A stretch of 13,241 nucleotides of DNA from positions 1-13,241 of the forward strand of contig CAZFVS010000021.1 of the NCBI GenBank assembly GCA_964522265.1. The letters run 5' to 3'. The position numbers were made by a program, and so were the translations under genes. Numbering within the stretch: the stretch's first letter is position 1; every line of letters starts with the position of its first letter. Shown piece by piece: positions 1,116 to 13,178 of the stretch. The DNA comes from an uncultured Gammaproteobacteria bacterium (GTDB lineage: Bacteria > Patescibacteriota > Microgenomatia > Daviesbacterales > UBA10151). The notes under the pieces were generated by a model. That model ran no database searches. It saw nothing but the letters and a program-made list of their open reading frames with translations, and was not told the origin of the DNA.

Positions 1116-1622
1116 TTACTGCTCAAAACAATACAGCCTGGATTTTCTAGCACAGGAGGAGGTATAGTTGTCTGCAGTCCACCAGGCAGAATTGCTATTC
1201 ATCATCCCTGATTTGCCTGAATACGGATCAGAGCCTGAGATATATTCAGGGCCATAAGTCCAGTTATTACATGAGGTATACTGGCTGAAGATATTTCCAA
1301 AACCATTAGTGTTAGTCCAAACTGCATTAGTTTCCATACCATCTGCAGGGGCACCTGTTTCTGTAATATTAATGGGGTTTTGGATATATCCATTAAGCAC
1401 TATATCATCCCAATTACTTCCTACAACTTTTCCATTAAGAAGTTTATAGGGAAGTTTGGCATGAGTAAGCCTGGATGAGGCTGAAATTGTACTGGATGAA
1501 AGCCAGGCTTTAAATGTACCTCCAAGCTTTGCAGCATCTGCTGCGGATTGGCATTTCTGGTCTGCTCCTGTTAATCCTCCTAAATTACCATTATAGGTAG
1601 ATTTGGTAACAAAGACTTTTTT
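1116..1622 (-). other. Endostatin-like four-Cys module, copy 1 (C-terminus of the metalloprotease)
   Basis: KKVFVTKSTYNGNLGGLTGADQKCQSAADAAKLGGTFKAWLSSS...VWTNTNGFGN...SCNNW...SCARKSRLYCFEQ followed by a stop codon. The module is mosaic at the DNA level relative to copies 2 and 5. Confidence 0.75.
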
Positions 1623-3911
1623 CTCCGTAGGACATTTATTAATTTTAAAGCTAGCGGGCGAACCGCCGTCACCTGCACCCCACAACCTCACATAATAAGT
1701 AGTATCTGGATTAAGAACTAGCGGGCCATAAGGACCATAAATGGTTCCATAGAAACCAAGCGGAGCTGTTGTTGATTTTGCAGGAGAGACGTATTTCCAA
1801 GAAATATTGTAAAAATCAGGGTTAAGTGAAAAATCAACATAATAGATATTCTCATCTGTCCAAGATACTAATACATCACTCCCAACATACCCAGGATTAA
1901 TACAGCTGACATTTACTTTTATCGTAGGGGGGTTAGGCGGTTCAATCCCATAAACCCAAACAGAAGTAAGAAAAATATCATCTGAATATAATTCAAAATT
2001 ATTGCCATGGTTTGTAATAAAAGTTGCTTGTTGGGACCCTGATGTGCCAGTTGCAAAAACTTTACCACCTTCTTTGACGGTTACATTAGTAGCATTAGCG
2101 GTAGACCAAGTAATAGTGGTTATACAGGTGGAAGCTCCTAATGCTATCGTACAAGGATTAGGAGAAGCTGAGATAGCCCCTTTTGGGGAAGGGACATAAC
2201 TGACATCAACTGTTGCCTTACCTGGAAGTGTACCTAATCTTGCTGTATGACTGGTTTGTTTTACAGAAACATTATAGAGCGTATCTTGAAACGTCAAACC
2301 GTCCGAGAGTGAGGAATCATTGATATACCCACGTGTTCCAAGGGTGGTGTCTATTAATCTTGTTTGCCACCAATTATCATCATTCCAAAGGTGAACACTT
2401 ACTCCCCCTGTAATGCCGGGTGGAAGATTTGCATCATATCCAAAACCTTGCCTATAGCTTATATAATATGACCAATAATTAGGTAGGGGTATTTTTAATA
2501 TTTGAGTTTCTGTTGAAGCTGTCTCTATATCAGAAATAGTATAAGTACCGCTTCCGGTCAATTCTTTAACGTTTTCTGGAGGTAACCAATTCTCAGCAAC
2601 TTTATGCGGGCCATTAAAATGCAGCATGTCGGGGGTCACATTCCAAAAATTTCCCATAACGTCGTAGTAATCCCCATATTCTAAATTGCTACAATTTAAA
2701 TAATCTACTGAACCAACTGAACAATCTGCTAAATTTGCATGGTGGACGCCTAAATTGTGACCCATTTCATGAGCGTAAATCCTTAAGTCAGTCAGACTAC
2801 TAAAAATCCAGGATATTGAAGGATTTCCTCCTATAGTGCCAAACCCCCCATAGGAACAATTTACAGAACTTGGAAAAACGTAAACCTTTCTTTGGTACTG
2901 GTCTAAGTTTACCCCGGCAGCTCTTGCGACTAGATCTGCTTCATCTCCCCATTGATAATAAGGACAACCAGAATTTGAAGAAGGAATTGTCAACCAACCA
3001 TACACCTCACCGCTAAAAGAAGCTTTATTATACGAGTTTTCCTTATAATATCCGGCTAAAGAATTAGTTGGATTAAACATGAGAGATTTGATTTGATCAG
3101 TAGTAACTGGTCTAGAAGTATCGTTTGAAAAATTCACAAGTAAAACTACTGTTTTTTGTTCACCAAGGGCATACGTTCCTAACCCAAGTACTTTATCATC
3201 TTTTTTTAAATTGTAATTTGGCCCGGTTTTGTCACCAGTTTCCAGTACCAAATTATTGTCAATCGAAAGACCGGTCACTACAACTTCGGTATCAGTTAGT
3301 AATTTTGGAGGATTTTTTACAAAATGGAGCTTAATGCTTTTAGGCTCAGCAGTTACTTTGAACCCTGATTGTCGAATTGTACTTGGATCTTCCAAGAAGT
3401 ACTCAAATTTGCTTTTCTTGCCCTCAAAATCGTCCATATGAACAACCCTTAACTTACCTTTTATCTGTTGATGCTGTTCAATATTTAATTTAATTTCTTC
3501 AGTAAAACTTTCTCTTTTATCGATAAGGATTGCGTGTTTTAGAAATTCTTGAGGATTATTTTCTGCTTCTTTGAGTAATAACTCTTTTCTTCTTTTCGCT
3601 TTATCAGCTAAATTTTTATTATTTACAGGCTTTTGCACCTCATCCAATTTTGCTTCCCCCAATAAATCCTTGGTTAATTTATCTATCTCCTGGCTAATTT
3701 CTTGAGCTTCTGACGGCGGTTTTGGGAAAAGGGTGGAGAAGAGCTGGTCTTTAAAATTAAAGGTATTAGTTATTAAGAAAAATCCCAACAGTCCAACTAC
3801 AGCTACTATCAACAGCAGATGTCCAACACCCGCTTCGCTTGCGAAGCGAGGCTTGTTGTTTCGCTGCAAGGCGAGCAAGCCTTTTTGGTTAATTTTTTGC
3901 CAAGAGAGCAT
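1116..3911 (-). CDS. Membrane-anchored/secreted multidomain Zn-metalloprotease (HExxHxxGxxH, gametolysin/M11-like metzincin) with Ig/FN3-like spacers and a C-terminal endostatin-like (DUF1554-like) module
   Basis: 931-aa ORF with ATG at 3909-3911. The leader MLSWQKINQKG...EAG is followed by the hydrophobic helix VGHLLLIVAVVGLLGFFLI and then FNFKDQLFSTLFPKPPSEA. The zinc motif HEMGHNLGVHH is encoded at 2739-2771. The context (VVLLVNFSN...YYKENSYNKASFSGEVYGWLTIP...) resembles bacterial M11-like proteases. The last 168 aa are paralogous to four other modules in this window. Confidence 0.9.
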   Translation of the reverse strand: MLSWQKINQKGLLALQRNNKPRFASEAGVGHLLLIVAVVGLLGFFLITNTFNFKDQLFSTLFPKPPSEAQEISQEIDKLTKDLLGEAKLDEVQKPVNNKNLADKAKRRKELLLKEAENNPQEFLKHAILIDKRESFTEEIKLNIEQHQQIKGKLRVVHMDDFEGKKSKFEYFLEDPSTIRQSGFKVTAEPKSIKLHFVKNPPKLLTDTEVVVTGLSIDNNLVLETGDKTGPNYNLKKDDKVLGLGTYALGEQKTVVLLVNFSNDTSRPVTTDQIKSLMFNPTNSLAGYYKENSYNKASFSGEVYGWLTIPSSNSGCPYYQWGDEADLVARAAGVNLDQYQRKVYVFPSSVNCSYGGFGTIGGNPSISWIFSSLTDLRIYAHEMGHNLGVHHANLADCSVGSVDYLNCSNLEYGDYYDVMGNFWNVTPDMLHFNGPHKVAENWLPPENVKELTGSGTYTISDIETASTETQILKIPLPNYWSYYISYRQGFGYDANLPPGITGGVSVHLWNDDNWWQTRLIDTTLGTRGYINDSSLSDGLTFQDTLYNVSVKQTSHTARLGTLPGKATVDVSYVPSPKGAISASPNPCTIALGASTCITTITWSTANATNVTVKEGGKVFATGTSGSQQATFITNHGNNFELYSDDIFLTSVWVYGIEPPNPPTIKVNVSCINPGYVGSDVLVSWTDENIYYVDFSLNPDFYNISWKYVSPAKSTTAPLGFYGTIYGPYGPLVLNPDTTYYVRLWGAGDGGSPASFKINKCPTEKKVFVTKSTYNGNLGGLTGADQKCQSAADAAKLGGTFKAWLSSSTISASSRLTHAKLPYKLLNGKVVGSNWDDIVLNGYIQNPINITETGAPADGMETNAVWTNTNGFGNIFSQYTSCNNWTYGPEYISGSDPYSGKSGMMNSNSAWWTADNYTSSCARKSRLYCFEQ
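3828..3878 (-). repeat. 51-nt GC-rich palindromic in-frame insert in the leader (copy A)
   Basis: Encodes LLALQRNNKPRFASEAG between the leader KG and the VGH helix start. It contains the hairpin CGCTTCG-CTTG-CGAAGCG (3831-3848) and a second imperfect hairpin. The S8 and 237-aa paralogs lack this segment. Confidence 0.7.
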
Positions 3912-3955: not shown

Positions 3956-4357
3956 TTAATTGACGAGCCTTTTAATATCAGGGAATTTATCAAAATCTTT
4001 ATCAAAAGAATAAATTTGATTGATTTTTCTCTTATTCATTAAAGCAACATGATATGCATCTGCCAGGCTAATATTTTTCTTAATAAAGTAGTCAAAAGTA
4101 GATTTTATCAAATTTTCTTGCTCTATTTTAACATTTTCTAAGTTTAATATAGGAATTAATTTCCCTTGAATTTCATCTTTGCTAAGTTTGTGGGTATTCT
4201 GCATTACAAAAACAGTTTCAAAGATTACAATCCATGAAATATAAACTTTAATTTCCCCATTATCAATTTTTTTAAAAATCTTTTCGGACTTTAGAGCATA
4301 AATTGGGTGATCTTGCAGGATAAAACGCAAAATTACATTAGTATCAAGCAAAATCAT
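3956..4357 (-). CDS. vapC: PIN-domain ribonuclease toxin (VapC family)
   Basis: 133-aa ORF. MILLDTNVILRF carries the N-terminal PIN acidic residue. Further conserved acidic positions occur in IFETVF, SLADAYHVAL and IYSFDKDFDKF. The start codon abuts the stop of the upstream antitoxin gene. Confidence 0.85.
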   Translation of the reverse strand: MILLDTNVILRFILQDHPIYALKSEKIFKKIDNGEIKVYISWIVIFETVFVMQNTHKLSKDEIQGKLIPILNLENVKIEQENLIKSTFDYFIKKNISLADAYHVALMNKRKINQIYSFDKDFDKFPDIKRLVN

Positions 4358-4651
4358 CTATTTTAAATGGGCGCTTTGTAATATTTTCAAATCTTTTTCT
4401 GCTGCTACTTTTGCCCAAGCGTGCTTTTCTTCTTGAAGAACTTCTGAAATATTTTTAAACTTTACCCTTGATTTTAAAGAACCATACAGGTGCATTATAG
4501 AAGAGCGTTTAGCAGGTTTAATTTTAACCTCTTTTTTGGCAGTAACCAAAAACTTGACTTGGTCACCACGCTTTAGGTTTAACAGTTTCCTGATTTCAAC
4601 AGGTATGGTCACTTGCCCTTTTTGGGTAATAGTGGTTGCTGAAGTTTGCAT
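4358..4651 (-). CDS. vapB: AbrB/SpoVT (MazE-fold) antitoxin, VapB-type partner of the PIN toxin
   Basis: 97-aa ORF. TITQKGQVTIPVEIRKLLNLKRGDQVKF is a typical SpoVT-AbrB swapped-hairpin DNA-binding motif. It lies immediately upstream of vapC with no gap. Confidence 0.8.
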   Translation of the reverse strand: MQTSATTITQKGQVTIPVEIRKLLNLKRGDQVKFLVTAKKEVKIKPAKRSSIMHLYGSLKSRVKFKNISEVLQEEKHAWAKVAAEKDLKILQSAHLK

Positions 4652-4693: not shown

Positions 4694-5182
4694 TTACTGC
4701 TCAAAACAATAAAGCCTGCCATTCCCGTCACAATAAGATCTGGTAGGATAATTTGTCCACGCATTATTGATTGCATTTGTATTGCCAACCCTAGCAGTCC
4801 TAATATCCCGCACCGTCCAGTTATTACAGGACATTGAGAATTTTCCATCCAAAGAACTGATGTTACCATCTGATTTAGTATTTGTCCAAACTAATTTTAT
4901 ACCTGTTAACTGGACATTACTTTCATCTATATTGATTGCTCCGGATAAATTACCATCTATCAAATCGGTCCAGTCATTGGCAACTATTGTACCGTTTAAT
5001 AATTTATACGGGACTGCGGCATGGGCGAGTCTTGACGAAGCAGAAATCGTACTTGATGAAAGCCAGGCTTTAAATGTACCACCAAGCTTTGCAGTATCTG
5101 CTGCGGATTGGCATTTCTGGTCTGCACCGGAAAGTCCCCCTAAATTACCATTAAAGGTAGACTTGGTAACAAAAACTTTCTT
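4694..5182 (-). other. Endostatin-like four-Cys module, copy 2 (C-terminus of the S8 protease)
   Basis: KKVFVTKSTFNGNLGGLSGADQKCQSAADTAKLGGTFKAWLSSSTISASSRLAHAAVPYKLLNG...VWTNTKSDGN...SCNNW...SYCDGNGRLYCFEQ followed by a stop codon. Confidence 0.75.
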
Positions 5183-7216
5183 GGAGGTTGGGGATGGAAC
5201 AGGAGTTGGTGTGGGTGTAGGAGTTGGTGTTGGTGTTGGTGTTGAAGTAATTACTGAGGATAAAGTTACGTTATCAATATACCATCCTTCGTAATTATTA
5301 AACAGGTTATCAACAGTATCAAAGAAGAAACGTATCTGTATTGAACTTCCGGCATATGCAATAAGATTTATCTTATGAAGAACCCATTGCTCTGAGATAC
5401 CTGATACTTGGTAAATTTTTTGCCATGGACCACCATTTACTGAAATCTCAACCGTCTTTTTGTCCCATGTAGTACCTGTGGTTTCTGTTTGATACCAACT
5501 ATAAAATGACAGACTGGGGTTCGTTGATAGCGTCACAGACGGAGATGTAAGATATCCGGAATTTTTTGTACCGTTGTCATAATTACCTGTTAACTCTTGG
5601 CCATACCAAAAACTTCTCCCCCCAGAAGAGGGCGATGAAGGGGTTGGTGTAGGGGTTCCACCGCCTTCACGGATATCTAATGCAACCTGTTTATCACTAC
5701 TAAGATCTTTTCTTTTTGTACTATGCCAAAAACCGGTTGTGGCAAATCCCTGGTCCGAATCATCAAATGTATATGTAATACCCGGTTGAGGTGGTATTGG
5801 AGTAGGCGATGGACGGGGTGAATCAGTTATAGCAGCTGCAACATTTAACCTTCCCCCTGTAACTGTTTTACCATTAAGCGAACTCGTATCTGTGGTTGTT
5901 CCTAAAATAGCATTTTTAATCTCTAAGGCTGTTTTGCCGGGATGAGCTGCTGCGTATAAAGCAGCTGCACCTGACACATGGGGGGTAGCCATTGATGTAC
6001 CGCTATAAGCTCCATATTTGCTATCCGGAAGAGTAGAATAAACACCAACTCCCGGCGCACCTAAATCTACAGTCAAGGATCCCCAGTTGGAAAAAGAAGC
6101 TAGACTCCCGGTGGTGTTAATAGCTGCAACAGTTATAACATTGTCGTTTGGATAACTGGCAGGATAAAAAGAGTTGCTATCATTATTGTTGCCATAATTA
6201 TTGCCGGCTGCTGCAACAAATAAAATGTTTGCCTGTTTTGCCCGTTCTATAGCATCATAGAGCGCCTGGGAATAACCTCCTCCACCCCAAGAGTTTGAAC
6301 TGGCAACTATATTTAAACCATGCCTAACCTTCAGGTCTGTTAAATAGTCTAAGGCTTTAACAGCATCAGAAATGTAACCCCCATACGGACCTAAAAATTT
6401 AGTGTTAATAATTGTTGCTTTCCAATTGACTCCTGCCACACCAATACCGTTCCCTCCAATTCCTGCAATTGTTCCTGTCACATGAGTTCCATGATCATCC
6501 CCATCAGCTGCATCATAAATTGAATTGTCTTTGTTCCAAAAATCCCAACCATGAATATCATCAATATATCCATTCCCATCATTATCTATCCCGTCTTGAG
6601 GATCAAAAGGGTTAGTCCAGATATTGGCTGCCAAATCAGGATGGGTAAATTGGATCCCTTCGTCTATCACACCTATATAAACCGTATTGTTTCCAATATA
6701 ACCTCCAGCCCAGGCTTTAGAAGCTTGAGAACCATATTGGGATACAGGTGATGTTGAATCACTCCCCATTCCCCACAGTGAACCGTTTAAATAATACGGA
6801 TCATTCGAGGTTTCCTGATGAGTATTTAAAAAATCCGGCTCGGCAAATTCAACTGATGGATCCTGATTTAACTGTGCAATAACTTCACGGACTGTTTTAC
6901 CGGATTTTATATTACGGAGTTCAAGATCTCCTTTATCTTTATCCGCTTTTTTGAGTGTTTCTTGTTTGGAAATATTTACATTAGACTCAGTTCTTTTTTT
7001 TACACTTTCATCGGTCCCCTTTTTAAATTGGACAATAACCCTATCTTTAGCATATTCAGGTTCAGCAGATTTTTGCTCTGCTTCTGACGGCGGTTTTGGG
7101 AAAAGGGTGGAAAAAAGTTGGTCTTTAAAATTGAAGGTATTGGAAACCAGCAAAAAAGCAATCAAACCCAAAACTGCAAATATCAACAGTAGATGACCAA
7201 CGCCTCTGGTATTCAT
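4694..7216 (-). CDS. Membrane-anchored/secreted subtilisin-family (S8) serine protease with I9-like propeptide, jelly-roll (MAM/LamG-like, tentative) domain, TP linker and C-terminal endostatin-like module
   Basis: 840-aa ORF. The catalytic triad contexts are GVIDEGIQFTHPDL (Asp), HGTHVTGTIAG (His) and GTSMATPHVSGAAAL (Ser, 5969-6001). The N-terminus reads MNTRG then VGHLLLIFAVLGLIAFLLV then FNFKDQLFSTLFPKPPSEA. GWYIDNVTLS ends a beta-rich domain. The start overlaps the upstream gene's stop in an ATGA arrangement (7213-7216). Confidence 0.92.
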   Translation of the reverse strand: MNTRGVGHLLLIFAVLGLIAFLLVSNTFNFKDQLFSTLFPKPPSEAEQKSAEPEYAKDRVIVQFKKGTDESVKKRTESNVNISKQETLKKADKDKGDLELRNIKSGKTVREVIAQLNQDPSVEFAEPDFLNTHQETSNDPYYLNGSLWGMGSDSTSPVSQYGSQASKAWAGGYIGNNTVYIGVIDEGIQFTHPDLAANIWTNPFDPQDGIDNDGNGYIDDIHGWDFWNKDNSIYDAADGDDHGTHVTGTIAGIGGNGIGVAGVNWKATIINTKFLGPYGGYISDAVKALDYLTDLKVRHGLNIVASSNSWGGGGYSQALYDAIERAKQANILFVAAAGNNYGNNNDSNSFYPASYPNDNVITVAAINTTGSLASFSNWGSLTVDLGAPGVGVYSTLPDSKYGAYSGTSMATPHVSGAAALYAAAHPGKTALEIKNAILGTTTDTSSLNGKTVTGGRLNVAAAITDSPRPSPTPIPPQPGITYTFDDSDQGFATTGFWHSTKRKDLSSDKQVALDIREGGGTPTPTPSSPSSGGRSFWYGQELTGNYDNGTKNSGYLTSPSVTLSTNPSLSFYSWYQTETTGTTWDKKTVEISVNGGPWQKIYQVSGISEQWVLHKINLIAYAGSSIQIRFFFDTVDNLFNNYEGWYIDNVTLSSVITSTPTPTPTPTPTPTPVPSPTSKKVFVTKSTFNGNLGGLSGADQKCQSAADTAKLGGTFKAWLSSSTISASSRLAHAAVPYKLLNGTIVANDWTDLIDGNLSGAINIDESNVQLTGIKLVWTNTKSDGNISSLDGKFSMSCNNWTVRDIRTARVGNTNAINNAWTNYPTRSYCDGNGRLYCFEQ
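5183..5248 (-). repeat. Thr-Pro low-complexity linker (imperfect ACN-CCN tandem codon repeat)
   Basis: Encodes TSTPTPTPTPTPTPTPVPSPTS. The plus strand shows reiterated ggtgtt/ggagtt units. Confidence 0.8.
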
Positions 7217-8160
7217 TGGGGATCAGCCGGGTCTGTTTTATTACCACACTGGATCCTGCCAGACAACAGCTGACTTGTTGGCACTACTTCTTCGGATAAT
7301 CCCGGCGCGCTCCAGGAAAGTTTAAGATAAGGTATACTATTTTTAACAACCTGATATTTAATTTGAATATCATATACCTCATCTGCCTCTAAGTTGATTG
7401 TTTTCAGTGGCACTACTTTAGTCTTTTGAGATTTATCAGTCCAGGAGTCTATTATTAAATCTTTATTAACCCAAACTCTCACTCCATCTTTAGTCTCAGC
7501 AGAAAATGTATGTTCTCCGAAAACTTTGGCCTTAACAGACCCATTCCAGGTTACACCGTAACGCACAGAAACAATATCTTTTGGCAAAGATATCGCACCT
7601 GATAAATTCTCATCTATTTTCCCACCTCTTCCGGAGGTTAAAGTACCACGATTATCATCTAATTGACCGCCGTTATAGTATTGTCCATATAAACCCTGCA
7701 GCTGCGGAATCGGATCGCCCACTACTTCAACACTACACTGTGCTTTAGCACTCTTACCGGGACCTAAGGCAATTATTAGACGGGCGGTTTGTTTACCCAA
7801 TTTACAATAAGCCACTGTTTTAGTCTTTGCCCTACTGGGAGTACCTTTACTAACAGCACCATATGCTTGCCAAACATAATCTATCCCCTTTAAACTTGGG
7901 TCATCTAAATCTCCGCTAAATGTTACATCTTCGTTGGGAGCAACAGTTTGTTTATCAGCACTGCAGTGGGCCGAAATTATAGAAGACGTTACTCCGGATG
8001 GCAATTCATAACCTCTCTTATTCCGTAGCTCCAAAGCCTTAGGCAAAAAACCTGTTTGTTGGCCAACCAAATAAACACCCACTGCCACACCACCTAGTAA
8101 GATACCTAAAATAATAACTTGGGAAAACCCTTTTTGGTTGATATTTTTAAAAGAGGGCAT
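7213..8160 (-). CDS. Membrane-anchored PKD/Ig-like plus PA14 domain protein (adhesin/glycan-binding type)
   Basis: The ORF track gives 327 aa from an upstream TTG at 8196. I prefer the ATG at 8158-8160 (MPSFKNINQKG, 315 aa) because the same ATG-led leader begins the gene at 9971 and a promoter-like motif overlaps the TTG extension. GLYGQYYNG...DGVRVWVNKDLIIDSW...YDIQIKYQ is a PA14 signature. The hydrophobic helix FSQVIILGILLGGVAVGVYLVG follows KG. This protein has no endostatin-like module. Confidence 0.85.
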   Translation of the reverse strand: MPSFKNINQKGFSQVIILGILLGGVAVGVYLVGQQTGFLPKALELRNKRGYELPSGVTSSIISAHCSADKQTVAPNEDVTFSGDLDDPSLKGIDYVWQAYGAVSKGTPSRAKTKTVAYCKLGKQTARLIIALGPGKSAKAQCSVEVVGDPIPQLQGLYGQYYNGGQLDDNRGTLTSGRGGKIDENLSGAISLPKDIVSVRYGVTWNGSVKAKVFGEHTFSAETKDGVRVWVNKDLIIDSWTDKSQKTKVVPLKTINLEADEVYDIQIKYQVVKNSIPYLKLSWSAPGLSEEVVPTSQLLSGRIQCGNKTDPADPQ

Positions 8161-8234
8161 CAGTTCAAGTATTGAATAGATTGACTGGTTTGTCAATTAA
8201 CAGGACTAAACGGTTACTGCTCAAAACAATACAG
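8129..8234. repeat. Gene-junction repeat, copy 1 (~105 bp, near-identical to 9940-10044)
   Basis: By hand alignment the two copies differ by one 1-nt indel and two substitutions. The repeat spans the last codons and stop (LYCFEQ) of the upstream gene, the whole intergenic spacer with its promoter-like motif, and the first 11 codons (MPSFKNINQKG) of the downstream gene. Confidence 0.9.
8168..8196 (-). promoter_or_regulatory. Putative promoter TTGACA-N17-AATACT for the PA14 gene
   Basis: The minus strand has a consensus -35 TTGACA (8191-8196), a 17-nt spacer and -10 AATACT (8168-8173). Seven nt later comes the ATG, with no Shine-Dalgarno sequence. The same element recurs at 9979-10007. Confidence 0.4.
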
Positions 8235-8702
8235 GGCAGCCTGCAGGTTGCAATTGTTAATATCCAACCAGGTCCACCTGCCGTCCCAAAAGGAGGAGTG
8301 CCCTGTCCTCCCCCTTTCAAAACCTGAAGATGAACTAGATTGCCAATTATTACAGTGCAGTGGCCCATCCTGGTCTCCGGTTCTGACTCCATTAGGCAAA
8401 GTATTAGTCCAAACATAATTAGATTTATAGGTATTATATTCTGTAATGTTAATTGGATTAATATAACTATCAAACAGATCATTTCTATCTGCTGCAACTG
8501 TAACCCCATTTAATAATTTATATTTCCCCTCAAAAAATCTAAACCTAAGATTTGGGGAGCTGTCAACTGTACTGTCGCTTATCCAGGCTTTCCATTTTCC
8601 ACCTAAGCTTGCTGCATCAGCGCTGCTTTGACATTTATAATCTGCACCTAATATTCCGCCTAAATTCCCTGAATAATTATTACTGGTAACAAATACCTTT
8701 TT
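8214..8702 (-). other. Endostatin-like four-Cys module, copy 3 (C-terminal module of the bivalent protein; most divergent)
   Basis: KKVFVTSNNYSGNLGGILGADYKCQSSADAASLGGKWKAWISDS...VWTNTLPNG...HCNNW...NCNLQAALYCFEQ followed by a stop codon. Confidence 0.7.
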
Positions 8703-9971
8703 GGGCGGGATTTCGCCCGCTATTTTTATTTTGTAGGTAATTTTTGGTCCGAATGCCCAAACCCCATCTGGTTTGGTATATCTTAAGGTTACTTCCCCTG
8801 TGTATAACTGCTCTTTATTCCCTACCCTTTGAAAATTATTGTTATCAAACACCATACGTAAAGAAACTTTTGCTGATTGTCCGGTTTTTAATTCCCCTAC
8901 TTGCGGGATCAAGCCGTATAACACATACCCGTAATCTGGAACTTCGGTGGTTAGATCCCATTTTGTGTCATAAGGAGTGTAAATTGTAATACCTTCCGCA
9001 TCAACCATTCCGTTATTTCCGTCAGGCCGATTGATGGTCGCCTCAACCGAAGTTTTATTAACAGTTACCGTTATCGGCAAAGGGCTGGGAGACGGACTAG
9101 GACTCGGGCTGGGTAAGGGGGAGGGACTTGGGCTTGGTGAAAGAGAAGGGCTTGGTGATGGGAAAGGTGATAAACTGGGTGGAAGAGAAGGGCTGGGTGA
9201 AGGGGAGAGGCTGAAATCAGGTTGTTCTATACAATAGAGTCTTGCCTGTCCTGTACACCACATGGAATTATTACTCTCGGTCCACCAACTAGCTGAATTA
9301 GGAATACTCGTATAATATGTGTTTCCGTGTACTAATCCCCCTCTGCCTTGTTGGTCAGTTCTGGTCCAATCCTGACAACTGCCTTGAGTCTGGGATATAT
9401 TTCCATTAGGTAATGTGTTCGTCCAAGCTATATGATTTTTAGTCAGATCAATTTTTATCCCTTTTTCGTTAATGTTTATGGGGTTTTGAATGGTACCATC
9501 TGTTAAATCAGCCCAATTATTTGCAACAATTGTATTATTTAATAGTTTATATTGCACAGTACTCTTAAAAAGCCTTGAAGAAGCAGGTACTGAGGATGAA
9601 GATATCCAAGTTTTAAAAACCCCTCCTAAGTTTACACTATCTGCAGCTTGCTGGCATTTCTGGTCTGCTCCAGCAAGCCCTCCTAAGTTACCATTATATT
9701 GAGTATTAGTTACAAACATTCTATAAAATGTTTTGGGTGTGGGTGTAGAGATTGGATCAGAGGCTGCTCTGGATTGAGGTTTTGGGAAAAGGGTGGAGAA
9801 AAATTGGTCTTTAAAATTAAAGGTATTTGAAACCAGCAAAAAAGCAATCAAACCCAAAACTGCAAATATCAGCAACAGATGCCCAACACCCGCTTCGCTT
9901 GCGAAGCGAGGCTTGTTGCTTCGCCGCAAGGCGAGCGAGCCTTTTTGGTTGATATTTTTAAAAGAGGGCAT
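8214..9971 (-). CDS. Membrane-anchored protein with two endostatin-like modules separated by a Ser-Pro linker and an Ig-like beta domain (bivalent lectin-like protein)
   Basis: The ORF track gives 597 aa from the TTG at 10007. I prefer the ATG at 9969-9971 (585 aa). The order is leader MPSFKNINQKG, the 17-aa palindrome-encoded insert, VGHLLLIFAVLGLIAFLLV, FNFKDQFFSTLFPKPQSRA, module A (ends ARLYCIEQ), the SP linker, a beta-rich domain, then module B (ends ALYCFEQ and stop). Confidence 0.88.
   Translation of the reverse strand: MPSFKNINQKGSLALRRSNKPRFASEAGVGHLLLIFAVLGLIAFLLVSNTFNFKDQFFSTLFPKPQSRAASDPISTPTPKTFYRMFVTNTQYNGNLGGLAGADQKCQQAADSVNLGGVFKTWISSSSVPASSRLFKSTVQYKLLNNTIVANNWADLTDGTIQNPININEKGIKIDLTKNHIAWTNTLPNGNISQTQGSCQDWTRTDQQGRGGLVHGNTYYTSIPNSASWWTESNNSMWCTGQARLYCIEQPDFSLSPSPSPSLPPSLSPFPSPSPSLSPSPSPSPLPSPSPSPSPSPLPITVTVNKTSVEATINRPDGNNGMVDAEGITIYTPYDTKWDLTTEVPDYGYVLYGLIPQVGELKTGQSAKVSLRMVFDNNNFQRVGNKEQLYTGEVTLRYTKPDGVWAFGPKITYKIKIAGEIPPKKVFVTSNNYSGNLGGILGADYKCQSSADAASLGGKWKAWISDSTVDSSPNLRFRFFEGKYKLLNGVTVAADRNDLFDSYINPINITEYNTYKSNYVWTNTLPNGVRTGDQDGPLHCNNWQSSSSSGFERGRTGHSSFWDGRWTWLDINNCNLQAALYCFEQ
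9075..9221 (-). repeat. Ser-Pro low-complexity linker (49 aa; imperfect TCN-CCN tandem repeat)
   Basis: Encodes PDFSLSPSPSPSLPPSLSPFPSPSPSLSPSPSPSPLPSPSPSPSPSPLP. The stretch is locally GC-rich with ggg/ctt/ggt reiteration. Confidence 0.8.
9222..9731 (-). other. Endostatin-like four-Cys module, copy 4 (internal, N-proximal module of the bivalent protein)
   Basis: FYRMFVTNTQYNGNLGGLAGADQKCQQAADSVNLGGVFKTWISSSSVPASSRLFKSTVQYKLLNN...AWTNTLPNGN...SCQDW...WCTGQARLYCIEQ, followed directly by the SP linker rather than a stop. Boundaries are approximate. Confidence 0.7.
9888..9938 (-). repeat. 51-nt GC-rich palindromic in-frame insert in the leader (copy B)
   Basis: Encodes SLALRRSNKPRFASEAG. By my count 33 of 51 nt are G/C, in an otherwise AT-rich window. 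It contains the hairpin CGCTTCG-CTTG-CGAAGCG (9891-9908) and a second stem CGCC-GCAA-GGCG. It is homologous to 3828-3878. Confidence 0.7.
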
Positions 9972-10044
9972 CAGTTCAAGTATTGAATAGATTGACTGGT
10001 TTGTCAATTAACAGGACTAACGGTTACTGTTCAAAACAATATAG
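9940..10044. repeat. Gene-junction repeat, copy 2 (near-identical to 8129-8234)
   Basis: See copy 1. This copy covers the stop of the 237-aa gene, the spacer, and the first 11 codons of the bivalent-module gene. Confidence 0.9.
9979..10007 (-). promoter_or_regulatory. Putative promoter TTGACA-N17-AATACT for the bivalent-module gene
   Basis: Identical to the element at 8168-8196. The ATG lies 7 nt downstream of the -10, with no Shine-Dalgarno sequence. Confidence 0.4.
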
Positions 10045-10527
10045 CCTGGATTTTCTGGCACAGGAGGAAGTATAATTGTCTGCAGTCCACCAGGCAGAGT
10101 TGCTATTCATCATTCCTGATTTGCCTGCATATGGGTCAGAGCCTGAGATATATTCAGGGCCATAGGTCCAGTTATTACATGAGGTATACTGGCTGAAGAT
10201 GGTACCAAAACCATTAGTGTTAGTCCAAACTGCTAGAGTCTCCGCACCGTTTGCAGGGGCACCGGTTTCTGTAATATTAATGGGGTTTCGGATGTATCCT
10301 TTTGTCAGACCAGCCCAGTTATTGGCAATGGTTGTACCATTTAGTAATTTATAGGGAACAGTGGCATGGGTTAGTCTGGATGAGGCAGAAATTGTACTTG
10401 ATGAAAGCCAAGCTTTAAATGTACCTACTAGGTTTGCATTACTTGATGCAGCCATGCATTTTTGGTCTGCTCCGGAAAATCCCCCTAAGTTTCCACTAAA
10501 AATAGCTTTGGTGACAAAGACTCTCTT
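10024..10527 (-). other. Endostatin-like four-Cys module, copy 5
   Basis: The 3' ~276 nt are about 91% identical to 1116-1391 (about 25 mismatches by hand count). Confidence 0.75.
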
Positions 10528-10737
10528 AGAAGTAGCTTGTGGTGTGGGTGTAGGAGTTGGAGTAATAGGACCAGAGATTGGATCAGAGGCTGCTCTAGAT
10601 TGAGGTTTTTGGAAAAGTTGACCAAATAACCTGTTCTTAAAATCAGCTGATGAGGCTACAACTAAAAAGGCCACTATCCCTAGTACTGCTATTAAAAAAA
10701 AGATATGGGTAATACCTTTTTCATTAACAAACTTCAT
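10024..10737 (-). CDS. Minimal family member: leader plus hydrophobic helix plus TP linker plus a single endostatin-like module
   Basis: 237-aa ORF. It reads MKFVNEKG, then ITHIFFLIAVLGIVAFLVV, then ADFKNRLFGQLFQKPQSRAASDP, then TPTPTPTP, then KRVFVTKAIFSGNLGGFSGADQKC...CARKSRLYCFEQ. Confidence 0.9.
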   Translation of the reverse strand: MKFVNEKGITHIFFLIAVLGIVAFLVVASSADFKNRLFGQLFQKPQSRAASDPISGPITPTPTPTPQATSKRVFVTKAIFSGNLGGFSGADQKCMAASSNANLVGTFKAWLSSSTISASSRLTHATVPYKLLNGTTIANNWAGLTKGYIRNPINITETGAPANGAETLAVWTNTNGFGTIFSQYTSCNNWTYGPEYISGSDPYAGKSGMMNSNSAWWTADNYTSSCARKSRLYCFEQ

Positions 10738-12470: not shown

Positions 12471-12650
12471 CTATCCTCCACATCTCTGTCGCGCATAATA
12501 TGCCAACTTTAGTTCCCATTCCCTTTCTTGTCTTTTCTGTATCTCATTTAATTCCTTTCTTAATCTTTTTATTTCTTCTCTTAACTCTCTGTTTTCCGAT
12601 TCTAATTTAGCTATAACTACATCTTCACTTGGTTCAAGTTCCTGCACCAT
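12471..12650 (-). CDS. Small (59 aa) coiled-coil protein of unknown function; below the ORF-track length cut-off
   Basis: Hand translation from the ATG at 12648-12650 gives MVQELEPSEDVVIAKLESENRELREEIKRLRKELNEIQKRQEREWELKLAYYARQRCGG, ending at TAG 12471-12473. It starts 1 nt after the stop of the upstream ORF and ends 15 nt before the groEL ATG. The charged heptad-like pattern suggests a coiled coil. Confidence 0.5.
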   Translation of the reverse strand: MVQELEPSEDVVIAKLESENRELREEIKRLRKELNEIQKRQEREWELKLAYYARQRCGG

Positions 12651-12651
12651 T

Positions 12652-12921
12652 TTAGTAAGCTACCCCCGGTTCTTCACCTACCCTTTCGTCTTTAAATATA
12701 TCCCCATCTCCATTACCGGCTTCAAGATACAATGTTCTGTCAGACAAATATATCTCGGGATGGGCAATATTAAGTATTATCTGCAAAGCATTTCTATAAG
12801 CCCACAAAACCCGGTCATCAATACTGTTTACATATTCTCCGCGCAGCATTTTGTCTCCTAACCTATTCCACTCAACACCAATCTGATCCAATAAACTTCT
12901 TGCTTGTCTTTCTGTCATCAT
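12652..12921 (-). CDS. Hypothetical small protein (89 aa)
   Basis: ORF-track entry with no recognisable motif. It is tightly packed, 2 nt after the upstream ORF's stop. A GAGGA Shine-Dalgarno-like motif lies about 9 nt upstream of the ATG, inside the end of the upstream ORF. Confidence 0.55.
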   Translation of the reverse strand: MMTERQARSLLDQIGVEWNRLGDKMLRGEYVNSIDDRVLWAYRNALQIILNIAHPEIYLSDRTLYLEAGNGDGDIFKDERVGEEPGVAY

Positions 12922-12923
12922 AA

Positions 12924-13178
12924 TTATTTTTCCTCATCCAGTGTAAATTCAAACTTACCCCCTGATACTCTATCAACACCTATCGAATCAGTCTTCCTTC
13001 TAACCATCATCAGCAAAGCTTCCATCACTTCTAATGCATATAAATTCTCTTTGTACGGCAGACTGGCTCCGGCACTATAAATGTCAAACTTTGGCATTAA
13101 GTTTTTCAGTTGATTTTTTCTATTTTCTATCATACCTTCTATTGTTTTTATTCTTCGCTTAGAAATTCTCTCCTCCAT
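12924..13178 (-). CDS. Hypothetical small protein (84 aa)
   Basis: ORF-track entry with a basic N-terminus (ISKRRIKTIEGMIENRKNQLK) and no recognisable family motif. Confidence 0.5.
   Translation of the reverse strand: MEERISKRRIKTIEGMIENRKNQLKNLMPKFDIYSAGASLPYKENLYALEVMEALLMMVRRKTDSIGVDRVSGGKFEFTLDEEK

Follow-up and report, generated by a model that had tools for sequence, protein, structure and literature searches.

The first 50 codons of a gene for a 237-residue protein on contig CAZFVS010000021.1 encode, as judged from profile matches, one copy of a large, undescribed, lineage-specific family of N-terminal signals of the Daviesbacteria/Microgenomates. The window analyzed here is this whole NCBI contig of 13,241 bp. 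The codons in question occupy positions 10588-10737 of its minus strand, within the gene 10024-10737, whose translation begins MKFVNEKG↓ITHIFFLIAVLGIVAFLVV-ASSADFKNRLFGQLFQKPQSRA↓A (the arrows mark putative cleavage points). A previous reading of the letters alone (the sequence-only reading) had noted a Gly directly before a hydrophobic helix in five proteins of the window. It had taken this for a prepilin-like (class III) leader on modular pilins, and it named an uncleaved signal anchor and a signal peptide with a distant S-x-A site as alternatives. What is new is the signal itself, a large lineage-specific N-terminal secretion signal absent from the curated libraries and the literature searched. 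Among the explanations weighed below, we lean, without great confidence, towards a hybrid, cleavable export signal composed of a prepilin-like front and a signal-peptidase-type back.

The four full-length window signals were combined into a profile, which was compared with 1.84 billion representative proteins. It matched 489 of them, each representing a cluster, at E ≤ 1e-3, and 125 at E ≤ 1e-10. All matches are N-terminal, within the first ~70 residues, in proteins of Candidatus Daviesbacteria, which are ultra-small bacteria of groundwater, and of other Microgenomates; the named source organisms belong to Candidatus Daviesbacteria, in the Microgenomates group of the Candidate Phyla Radiation (CPR)/Patescibacteria. 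The suggestion that the block is a dedicated sorting signal is thus borne out by 489 clusters in which it is conserved and N-terminal without exception. The full-length signal spans about 45-70 residues. Its consensus comprises [NS]-[QE]-[KR]-G, then a helix of 19 residues that has an A-x-x-G motif and, at +3, His or Pro, and finally F-K-D-x-L-F-x-x-L-F-P-K-P-x-S-x-A. Column counts were taken from the top 150 of the 489 matches. Gly precedes the helix in 136 of the 137 sequences aligned at this position (one has Ala, and 13 are unaligned), and its presence at the boundary is beyond chance at the family level. Position +3 is His in 80 and Pro in 55, and the columns equivalent to +5 hold Leu, Ile, or Val. 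In the middle of the helix, Ala is found in 136 sequences, Gly three residues on in 137, and then Phe in 130. The back half consists of F (148), K (124), D or N (140), then L (131) and F (144), followed by L (143), F or Y (149), P (130), K (147), and P (121). It ends with Ser at -3 (148 of 150) and Ala at -1 (150 of 150) around a variable -2 residue. Relative to this site, Pro occupies -7 and -5, +1 is Ala, Ser, Gln, or Val and never Pro, and family conservation stops directly after Ala(-1). Across the loci, Gly is encoded by all four of its codons, Ser by TCN and AGT, and Ala by four codons. This mixed codon use indicates that selection acts on the amino acids.

No Pfam or NCBIfam model covers the signal. 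It is not described in the literature retrieved with motif strings (e.g., LFPKP and FKDKLF) or in searches for Microgenomates signal peptides and CPR pilin-like signals; a preprint on the CPR "Pam" pilus deals with Ig-fold pilins, which are unrelated and have ordinary signal peptides. A word-index homology search with the 59-residue N-terminus of the window S8 subtilase gave no match, a first scan of a genome collection with narrow patterns found no relative, the 237-residue protein and GroEL retrieved no identical record, and an alignment of 36 sequences was too diverse to be used for pattern scanning. One candidate member, from "Mageeibacillus" (L013), was judged spurious, with an E-value of 0.01 against the family profile. 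Lipoprotein, twin-arginine translocation (Tat), sortase, and other C-terminal-anchor readings were also rejected: the signals contain neither Cys nor twin-Arg, and ...RLYCFEQ is found at the end of the C-termini. In the cyanobacterial Tll0404 protein (PDB 9i83 chain 3/8c7i), residues 91-109 (SFVDDLFSQWFPDPESQAN) weakly resemble the back half of the profile (dFKDkLFstLFpKpsSkA) at E=0.079, probably by chance. Ten of the top 150 members (~7%; P0002, P0004, P0044, P0057, P0059, P0069, P0070, P0086, P0117, and P0121) carry an extra motif, [AIL]-S-x-P-[IV]-S-x-P-[IV], right after S-x-A. The 237-residue protein reads ASDPISGPITP at this place (window 10561-10590). This motif could be a second sorting or modification site, or a linker only.

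The proteins that bear the signal are diverse. Seventy-four members carry 60 Pfam families, among them S8 with its N-terminal prodomain (18), Big_7 (17), and dockerin (12), as well as PA14, DUF1554, GH5, sulfatase, cohesin, and carbohydrate-binding modules. None of the 25 commonest cargo families listed for these 74 members is a pilin family. On a 507-kb contig, five consecutive genes encoding glycoside hydrolase, cohesin, dockerin, and carbohydrate-binding proteins all begin with the signal. In 21 S8 proteases of the family, S-x-A is located 3-11 residues (mode 8) ahead of the first strand of the prodomain. An S8 protease of locus L003 that starts with an ordinary signal peptide (AEA↓Q) shows equal spacing. 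In the window S8 protease, the Pfam prodomain match runs from residue 43 and overlaps P-P-S-E-A. The signal of these S8 members is therefore in the "pre" position, immediately upstream of the start of the pro-protein. The prodomain of subtilases is removed autocatalytically, so that an N-terminal helix could not retain the mature protease; for the S8 cargo class at least, the N-terminal block would act as a "pre" sequence.

The S-x-A motif also has the composition of a signal peptidase site. According to the (-3,-1) rule of von Heijne, residues -1 and -3 are small and uncharged, Pro is excluded from -3 to +1, and a helix breaker is found at about -4 to -7. The four full-length window signals and the family satisfy this rule, and P-K-P-x-S-x-A, with seven residues, has approximately the length of an extended c-region. 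Of the possibilities raised by the sequence-only reading, we favor a signal peptide whose S-x-A site is distant: one subfamily, described below, has no Gly, whereas S-x-A is near-invariant where conservation ends and the S8 prodomain starts. As an uncleaved signal anchor, the helix would instead tether the proteins to the cytoplasmic membrane, and the juxtamembrane block would be a spacer or an envelope-interaction motif. A spacer would leave the small residues at -3 and -1, the variable -2, and the lack of Pro at +1 unexplained. Furthermore, removal of the S8 prodomain would free the enzyme regardless of the anchor, and dockerin/cohesin pairs imply free subunits assembling outside the membrane. 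We consider a permanent anchor quite improbable, even though a helix of 19-22 residues can span the membrane, the putative site is unusually distant from it, the signal of the PA14 type has no good (-3,-1) site, and cell-bound enzymes would suit a tiny cell in flowing groundwater.

To avoid favoring Gly, the examined loci were scanned with the downstream motif only. Among the 25 signals retrieved, Gly is present at the helix boundary in 19 and absent in six (L003b, three in L004, L006a with NQRAAAH, and L012). These Gly-less signals, that we named type B, have longer and different leaders and retain F-K-D...P-K-P-x-S-x-A. No full-length signal without S-x-A was found. A shorter type C follows the pattern QKG-[FI]-A-[HQ]...G-V-Y-L-V-x-Q-[QK]-T-x-[FIL]-[FL]-P-[KRQ]-A, with a polar residue at +3; the QKG leader is present, and the F-K-D helix and S-x-A are absent. 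Besides the PA14 protein of the window, type C signals are carried by proteins of L007 (801 residues, gene from ~7549) and L010 (290 residues, gene from ~8770) and by P0152, P0153, P0158, and P0186. The PA14 protein matches the family profile in the first 18 positions only, which cover the leader plus the first half of its helix (3.7 bits), and by its pattern its signal is a member of this second, shorter type. In close DUF1554 homologs, the residues following the terminal Ala of type C align with those following S-x-A of the full-length type (A-[SI]-S-D-P-I-S...). All signal types have only two elements in common, the membrane helix and an Ala-terminated F-P-[KRQ] core. As type B lacks the Gly leader and type C lacks the F-K-D helix and S-x-A, the two halves are separable. 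Ordinary signal peptides are present in the same loci (e.g., ...VATGAEA↓Q in the L003 S8 protease), and the special signal thus marks a subset of the exported proteins. Q-K/Q-G followed by a hydrophobic helix was also observed on other small N-terminally anchored proteins with unrelated downstream sequences: a minus-strand 238-aa open reading frame (ORF) of L008 (MQKGQILVW...), a 140-aa ORF of L012 at ~13005 (MRRKLKNQGFSAIILL...), and P0161. The full signal is therefore less widespread than the leader-Gly module.

This modularity is one argument for a dedicated route, in which a prepilin peptidase would cut at Gly inside the cell and another protease at F-P-K...S-x-A outside, or in which a special membrane protease or receptor would act, leading to sorted release or surface attachment. 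The two halves are separable with F-P-[KRQ] kept in all types, both are conserved far above ordinary signal peptides, and the signal is restricted to a subset of proteins in loci that also encode ordinary signal peptides. The Pro at -3 of the short type argues against recognition by a plain type I peptidase, and ~7% of the members have S-x-P-I-S-G-P-I right after the site. In a second version of this proposal, the arrangement of basic leader, helix, and F-P-K-P would be the mirror image of C-terminal sortase/exosortase signals. We know of no precedent for such an N-terminal mirror image. No gene for a candidate processing enzyme adjoins any of the 13 examined loci, and no special enzyme is needed for the full-length type, which agrees fully with the (-3,-1) rule. 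A dedicated route is possible, if unlikely.

The front half of the signal has the layout that had suggested a prepilin. Class III signals are defined by a hydrophilic leader of typically 6-26 residues, Gly at -1, and a stretch of ~21 mostly hydrophobic residues (PMC4471445), and the signal family likewise shows a short hydrophilic leader ending in Gly and then ~19 hydrophobic residues. Two genuine pilins of L015 have the leaders MKNQKG↓QTLVE and FNNQKG↓FTLVE, with the same NQKG as the signal family. Among solved structures, the signal profile is best matched by a Geobacter prepilin (9egp_A, E=0.0056), and type IV pilins account for four of its six weak matches. In the HMMER alignment with 9egp_A, Gly is paired with Gly and, after a two-residue gap, His with Glu5, A-x-x-G with A-I-I-G, and F-K-D-K-L-F with Y-R-Q-K-A-F. 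A comparison with 14 Microgenomates pilin N-termini using hhalign gave a probability of 71% and P=3.9e-5 over 31 columns, with a score of 25.8. Permutation of all columns of the pilin alignment lowered this score to 9.6 ± 9.0. When only the 22 helix columns were permuted, with the leader and Gly kept, it was 17.5 ± 3.3, and 3 of 200 permutations reached the real score. The similarity to prepilins would therefore reside mostly in the layout, with a modest sequence-specific surplus. PF07963 (N_methyl), TIGR02532, and the archaeal class III models are absent from the matches of the full proteins (E ≤ 0.01 for Pfam and E ≤ 1 for NCBIfam). Ten isolated N-termini did not match the curated prepilin models even at E ≤ 10, a single faint PilA match (E=0.07) being found in one relative.

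If these were class III signals in function, a PilD-type peptidase would cut after Gly and the helix would be kept, making the proteins pilin-like subunits on a type IV pilus or held in the membrane. The layout, the NQKG leader shared with pilins of a Microgenomates pilus operon, the Geobacter match with its Gly-Gly and His-Glu5 pairs, and the hhalign P-value are all compatible with this explanation. Glu5 is dispensable for cleavage by PilD, Gly(-1) being critical (PMC4471445), and Microgenomates encode PilD (PMC7143001). Cleavage after Gly is thus possible, and a prepilin peptidase may also trim the leader at this point of the sequence. Glu5 is also missing from some of the genuine minor pilins encoded in L014 and L015, and DUF1554 is found on pilins elsewhere. 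However, His and Pro alternate at the position equivalent to Glu5, where they cannot share its charge role, which argues against a Glu5-like function in filament assembly. The curated models remain unmatched, and the hhalign score is mostly explained by the layout. The auto-cleaved prodomain of the S8 proteases directly follows the signal, so that the mature protease would detach from its anchor, and the dockerin cargo implies release. Moreover, this explanation accounts neither for the absence of Gly from a subfamily nor for the near-invariant S-x-A. Taking into account also the structure and the gene context described below, we find the pilin-subunit explanation distinctly unlikely.

The AlphaFold model of the 237-residue protein has a mean predicted local distance difference test (pLDDT) score of 86.6. 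It shows a membrane helix at residues 7-29, a separate helix at 31-41, and a disordered stretch at 42-70 (pLDDT 54-59). After this linker, a compact endostatin-like domain is modeled with pLDDT mostly above 90, and nothing is packed on the helix. Endostatins are the only significant Foldseek matches in the PDB (best E=2e-10). In the model, the helix is thus followed by a disordered Pro/Thr linker and not by a pilin globular domain such as the alpha-beta domain on which the C-terminal half of the long alpha-1 helix is packed in type IV pilins. Pfam scans of the window proteins showed no pilin domain either.

Modular pilins, known from other bacteria according to the sequence-only reading, do exist in Microgenomates, even with a DUF1554 module. 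At least ten homologs of the DUF1554 domain (40-48% identity) have a canonical prepilin N-terminus, ...[KR]-G↓F-T-L-[IV]-E-L-L (P0156, P0183, P0201, P0216, P0219, P0225, P0230, P0235, P0248, and P0263). All ten match Pfam N_methyl, several of them also T2SSG (PF08334), and all consist of a PulG-like region of ~150 residues, a Thr/Pro linker, and DUF1554. Such pilins are not described in the literature searched. The gene for P0216 (L014 1143-2213) is surrounded by other pilin genes and pilM. A further DUF1554 pilin, P0228 (L015 5774-7048 including an in-frame upstream extension), has a truncated annotated start, and the upstream frame reads ...KRKKG↓FTLVELV. Its gene is located directly after pilB, pilT, pilC, a pilin gene, and pilD (5076-5828), and before five pilin genes and pilM. 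The nearest named relatives of this PilD are from Candidatus Levyibacteriota, another Microgenomates lineage. We found no homolog of PilB, PilT, PilC, PilD, PilM, or pilins in the window or in ~160 kb around 13 signal-carrying loci; queries with the real Microgenomates PilB, PilT, PilC, PilD, and pilins of L015 likewise retrieved nothing. There is no A24 peptidase on the 13-kb window contig, and phmmer searches with Bacillus subtilis SipS and Pseudomonas aeruginosa PilD and PilT retrieved nothing in the examined loci.

Unlike the true DUF1554 pilins, which show Glu5, a pilin domain, and an operon context, the window proteins have none of these features and no match to a curated prepilin model, and they are not modular pilins. 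On sequence grounds, they are secreted enzymes and lectins with an unusual pre-sequence, and not pilus subunits. From the prepilin interpretation, the prepilin-like front end and the dedicated sorting signal are retained, and the modular pilins are not. The same lectin module is deployed in two ways in Microgenomates, on genuine pilins and behind the export signal.

The hybrid, cleavable export signal is therefore the explanation that we somewhat prefer, and its front half most likely descends from a prepilin N-terminus. Insertion of prepilins by the signal recognition particle (SRP) and Sec is established. By the same route, the front half would enter the membrane with its N-terminus inside the cell, and the cargo would be translocated across the membrane. 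A type I signal peptidase, or an enzyme of the same -3/-1 specificity, would then cut after S-x-A and release the enzyme or the lectin outside. The F-K-D helix may lie on the membrane surface, bringing the site within reach. The description of this helix as amphipathic, put forward in the sequence-only reading, proved weak: the hydrophobic moment of FKDQLFSTLF (0.24-0.36) is not above that of shuffles. The linking segment not being demonstrably amphipathic, the membrane-surface geometry is conjectural. Several other observations weigh against the hybrid model. S-x-A is located 22 residues past the helix, compared with the usual c-region of 3-7 residues. The strong conservation of [QE]-[KR]-G is left unaccounted for, as are the identity of the leader with that of local pilins and the weak but specific profile similarity to prepilins. 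Type C signals have Pro at -3 of the terminal Ala and violate the (-3,-1) rule. As they share the same F-P-K core, the recognized element may be F-P-K rather than S-x-A.

Secretion might also depend on the pilus machinery itself, PilD trimming NQKG, a type IV filament lifting the cargo through the envelope, and a cut at S-x-A releasing it. We regard this as very improbable. If true, it would represent a pilus-driven route in a single-membrane CPR bacterium, in which the secreted substrates themselves have pilin-like N-termini, comparable to a bindosome of archaea or to a pseudopilus of type II secretion that has fused with its cargo.

Returning to the window, four genes besides that of the 237-residue protein, all on the minus strand, code for proteins of the secreted type: an S8 subtilase that has a prodomain and, at its C-terminus, DUF1554, the PA14 protein, a protein containing DUF1554 twice (2xDUF1554), and an M11/M6-like metalloprotease also carrying DUF1554. 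The N-termini quoted for these four genes were confirmed, with ATG starts at 9971, 8160, 7216, and 3911, and the public protein records of two of them (585 and 931 aa) have the same starts. The details of the five N-termini given in the sequence-only reading likewise hold. In each of the five proteins, Gly abuts the hydrophobic run and the Glu at +5 that is near-universal in bacterial pilins is lacking (the residue being L, L, L, F, or I); Phe at +1 is found in the PA14 protein alone, and His at +3 in four. An S-x-A motif (PPSEA or QSRA) is present downstream of the helix in four proteins, with a spacing of 22 residues. The leaders have 5-28 residues and end with K-G, R-G, or A-G. The hydrophobic run comprises 22 residues in the PA14 protein, compared with 19 in each of the four full-length signals. 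Gly is thus found in every case; nevertheless, the five cases are not independent, four of them being paralogous copies of one signal. Similarly, the common F-x-F-K...P-K-P-x-S-x-A block exists in four proteins and is missing from the PA14 protein. Directly after S-x-A, the sequence is ASDPISGPITPTPTPTPQATSK in the 237-residue protein and EQKSAEPEYAK in the S8 protease.

Two of the leaders contain an in-frame 51-nt insert between NQKG and the helix (table 1), coding for S/LLALR/QRS/NNKPRFASEAG. There are exactly two such inserts in the window, compared with 0 expected, and the 9888-9938 copy folds at -30.3 kcal/mol (z=-3.15). The element appears to have inserted within the Gly codon and to have regenerated Gly. 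Related inserts are found in signals from other genomes: GSPRFASEAG in P0057, GSPREAG in P0044, SPRSLREAG in P0005, and LPRLLSEAG in P0063. Rickettsia palindromic elements are in-frame insertions in genes, of which the 51-nt insert is reminiscent. A start codon past the 17-codon insert was ruled out, as there is no ATG or GTG between the insert and the helix and the sole in-frame TTG is inside the helix. A near-identical block of ~95 nt is present on the minus strand at 8125-8225 and 9936-10036, before the PA14 and 2xDUF1554 genes. It contains the end of a DUF1554 gene (...LYCFEQ and stop), the intergenic region, and the first 11 codons, MPSFKNINQKG, including the Gly codon. Furthermore, the signal-coding DNAs of the S8 and 2xDUF1554 genes are almost identical. 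Together with the duplicated block, this suggests recent cassette-like recombination among the genes of the island. The ATG of the S8 gene overlaps the stop codon of the PA14 gene (ATGA, 7213-7216), which suggests that the two genes are translationally coupled. According to the Pfam and NCBIfam scans, the only other recognizable genes are groEL and a toxin-antitoxin pair of PIN-domain toxin and MazE/AbrB-type antitoxin (3956-4651), located between the metalloprotease and S8 genes. Downstream of groEL, at 12471-13178, are three small minus-strand ORFs (59, 89, and 84 aa), of which the 89- and 84-aa ORFs have no Pfam match.

Table 1. Signals, their parts, cargo, and leader inserts in the window (type A, full-length signal; type C, short signal; arrows, putative cleavage points)
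Feature	Positions	Strand	Basis
Type A export signal of the 237-aa DUF1554 protein, residues 1-49	10591-10737	-	translation; family profile, 76 bits; AlphaFold helices
Leader M1-G8 of this signal	10714-10737	-	translation
Helix I9-V27 of this signal	10657-10713	-	translation
Back end A28-A49 of this signal	10591-10656	-	translation
S47-R48-A49 (S-x-A) of the 237-aa protein	10591-10599	-	translation
Cargo of the 237-aa gene: Pro/Thr-rich linker and endostatin-like DUF1554 lectin-type domain	10024-10590	-	Pfam DUF1554, Endostatin
Type A signal of the S8 subtilase (gene 4694-7216), residues 1-46, MNTRG↓VGH...FPKPPSEA↓E	7079-7216	-	profile; Pfam prodomain
Type A signal of the 2xDUF1554 protein (gene 8214-9971), residues 1-69, including a 17-codon insert between NQKG and helix	9765-9971	-	profile; public record starts MPSF
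Type A signal of the M11/M6-like metalloprotease (gene 1116-3911), residues 1-69, same 17-codon insert	3705-3911	-	profile
Type C signal of the PA14 protein (gene 7213-8160), residues 1-42, MPSFKNINQKG↓FSQVIILGILLGGVAVGVYLVGQQTGFLPKA	8035-8160	-	translation; profile
51-nt GC-rich palindromic in-frame insert in the 2xDUF1554 leader, encoding SLALRRSNKPRFASEAG; Gly beside the helix regenerated	9888-9938	-	sequence, folding
Second 51-nt insert copy, in the metalloprotease leader, encoding LLALQRNNKPRFASEAG	3828-3878	-	sequence

Bacteria of the CPR, most of them uncultured, are abundant and presumed to depend on other cells or on polymers, and exported proteins are central to this lifestyle. In one major group of the CPR, a large and varied fraction of the exported hydrolases, lectins, and cellulosome-like components bears the signal. 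Standard signal-peptide predictors might handle it poorly, given its unusual length and spacing, and the signal profile represents a direct means of listing the secretome from metagenomes. The hybrid make-up suggests the recruitment of a pilin N-terminus as an export tag of general use, and it poses the question of which peptidase cuts where.

The signal resembles class I Sec signals in its n-region with a basic residue, its hydrophobic core, the residues around its putative cleavage site (Ser at -3 and Ala at -1, with Pro at -7 and -5 and none at +1), and its "pre" position in subtilases. It differs from them by a conserved spacer of 22 residues, a total length of 46-69 residues, the conserved boundary Gly, and very high sequence conservation over hundreds of cargo proteins that are unrelated to one another. 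In Gram-positive bacteria, the YSIRK-G/S and KxYKxGKxW signal peptides, found on a subset of secreted or surface proteins, are likewise restricted to lineages and have conserved motifs. In these, the motifs are in the n-region and unrelated in sequence, and neither NCBIfam model was matched. The Geobacter PilA-N protein ("geopilin domain 1"), a truncated pilin with little beyond the alpha-1 helix, is the best structure match and resembles the signal from the leader through F-K-D-K-L-F. In contrast to the signal-bearing proteins, it is a filament subunit with Glu5 and has neither P-K-P-x-S-x-A nor cargo, and the E-value of the match is marginal. With class III prepilin signals in general, the signal shares a leader, a Gly, and ~20 hydrophobic residues, the NQKG of Microgenomates pilins, an A-x-x-G as distant from its His(+3) as from the pilin Glu5, and a weak profile similarity. 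It differs by the lack of Glu5, with His or Pro two residues nearer to Gly, by F-K-D...P-K-P-x-S-x-A and a linker in place of a pilin head after the helix, and by the location of its genes outside pilus operons. A precedent for prepilin-type signals on binding proteins is the Sulfolobus "bindosome," whose sugar-binding proteins carry a class III signal, often without Glu5, on proteins that do not form filaments (PMC4471445). This system is archaeal and processed by PibD, it has no S-x-A block, and no homology with it is shown here. Modular type IV pilins are exemplified by Streptococcus sanguinis PilB (PMC8179133). Those with DUF1554 (P0201, P0216, and P0228) differ from the window proteins by their G↓FTL[IV]E start, N_methyl, a T2SSG domain of ~150 residues, and a pilus operon. 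They share with them the endostatin-like DUF1554 domain behind a Pro/Thr linker, in the same bacterial group.

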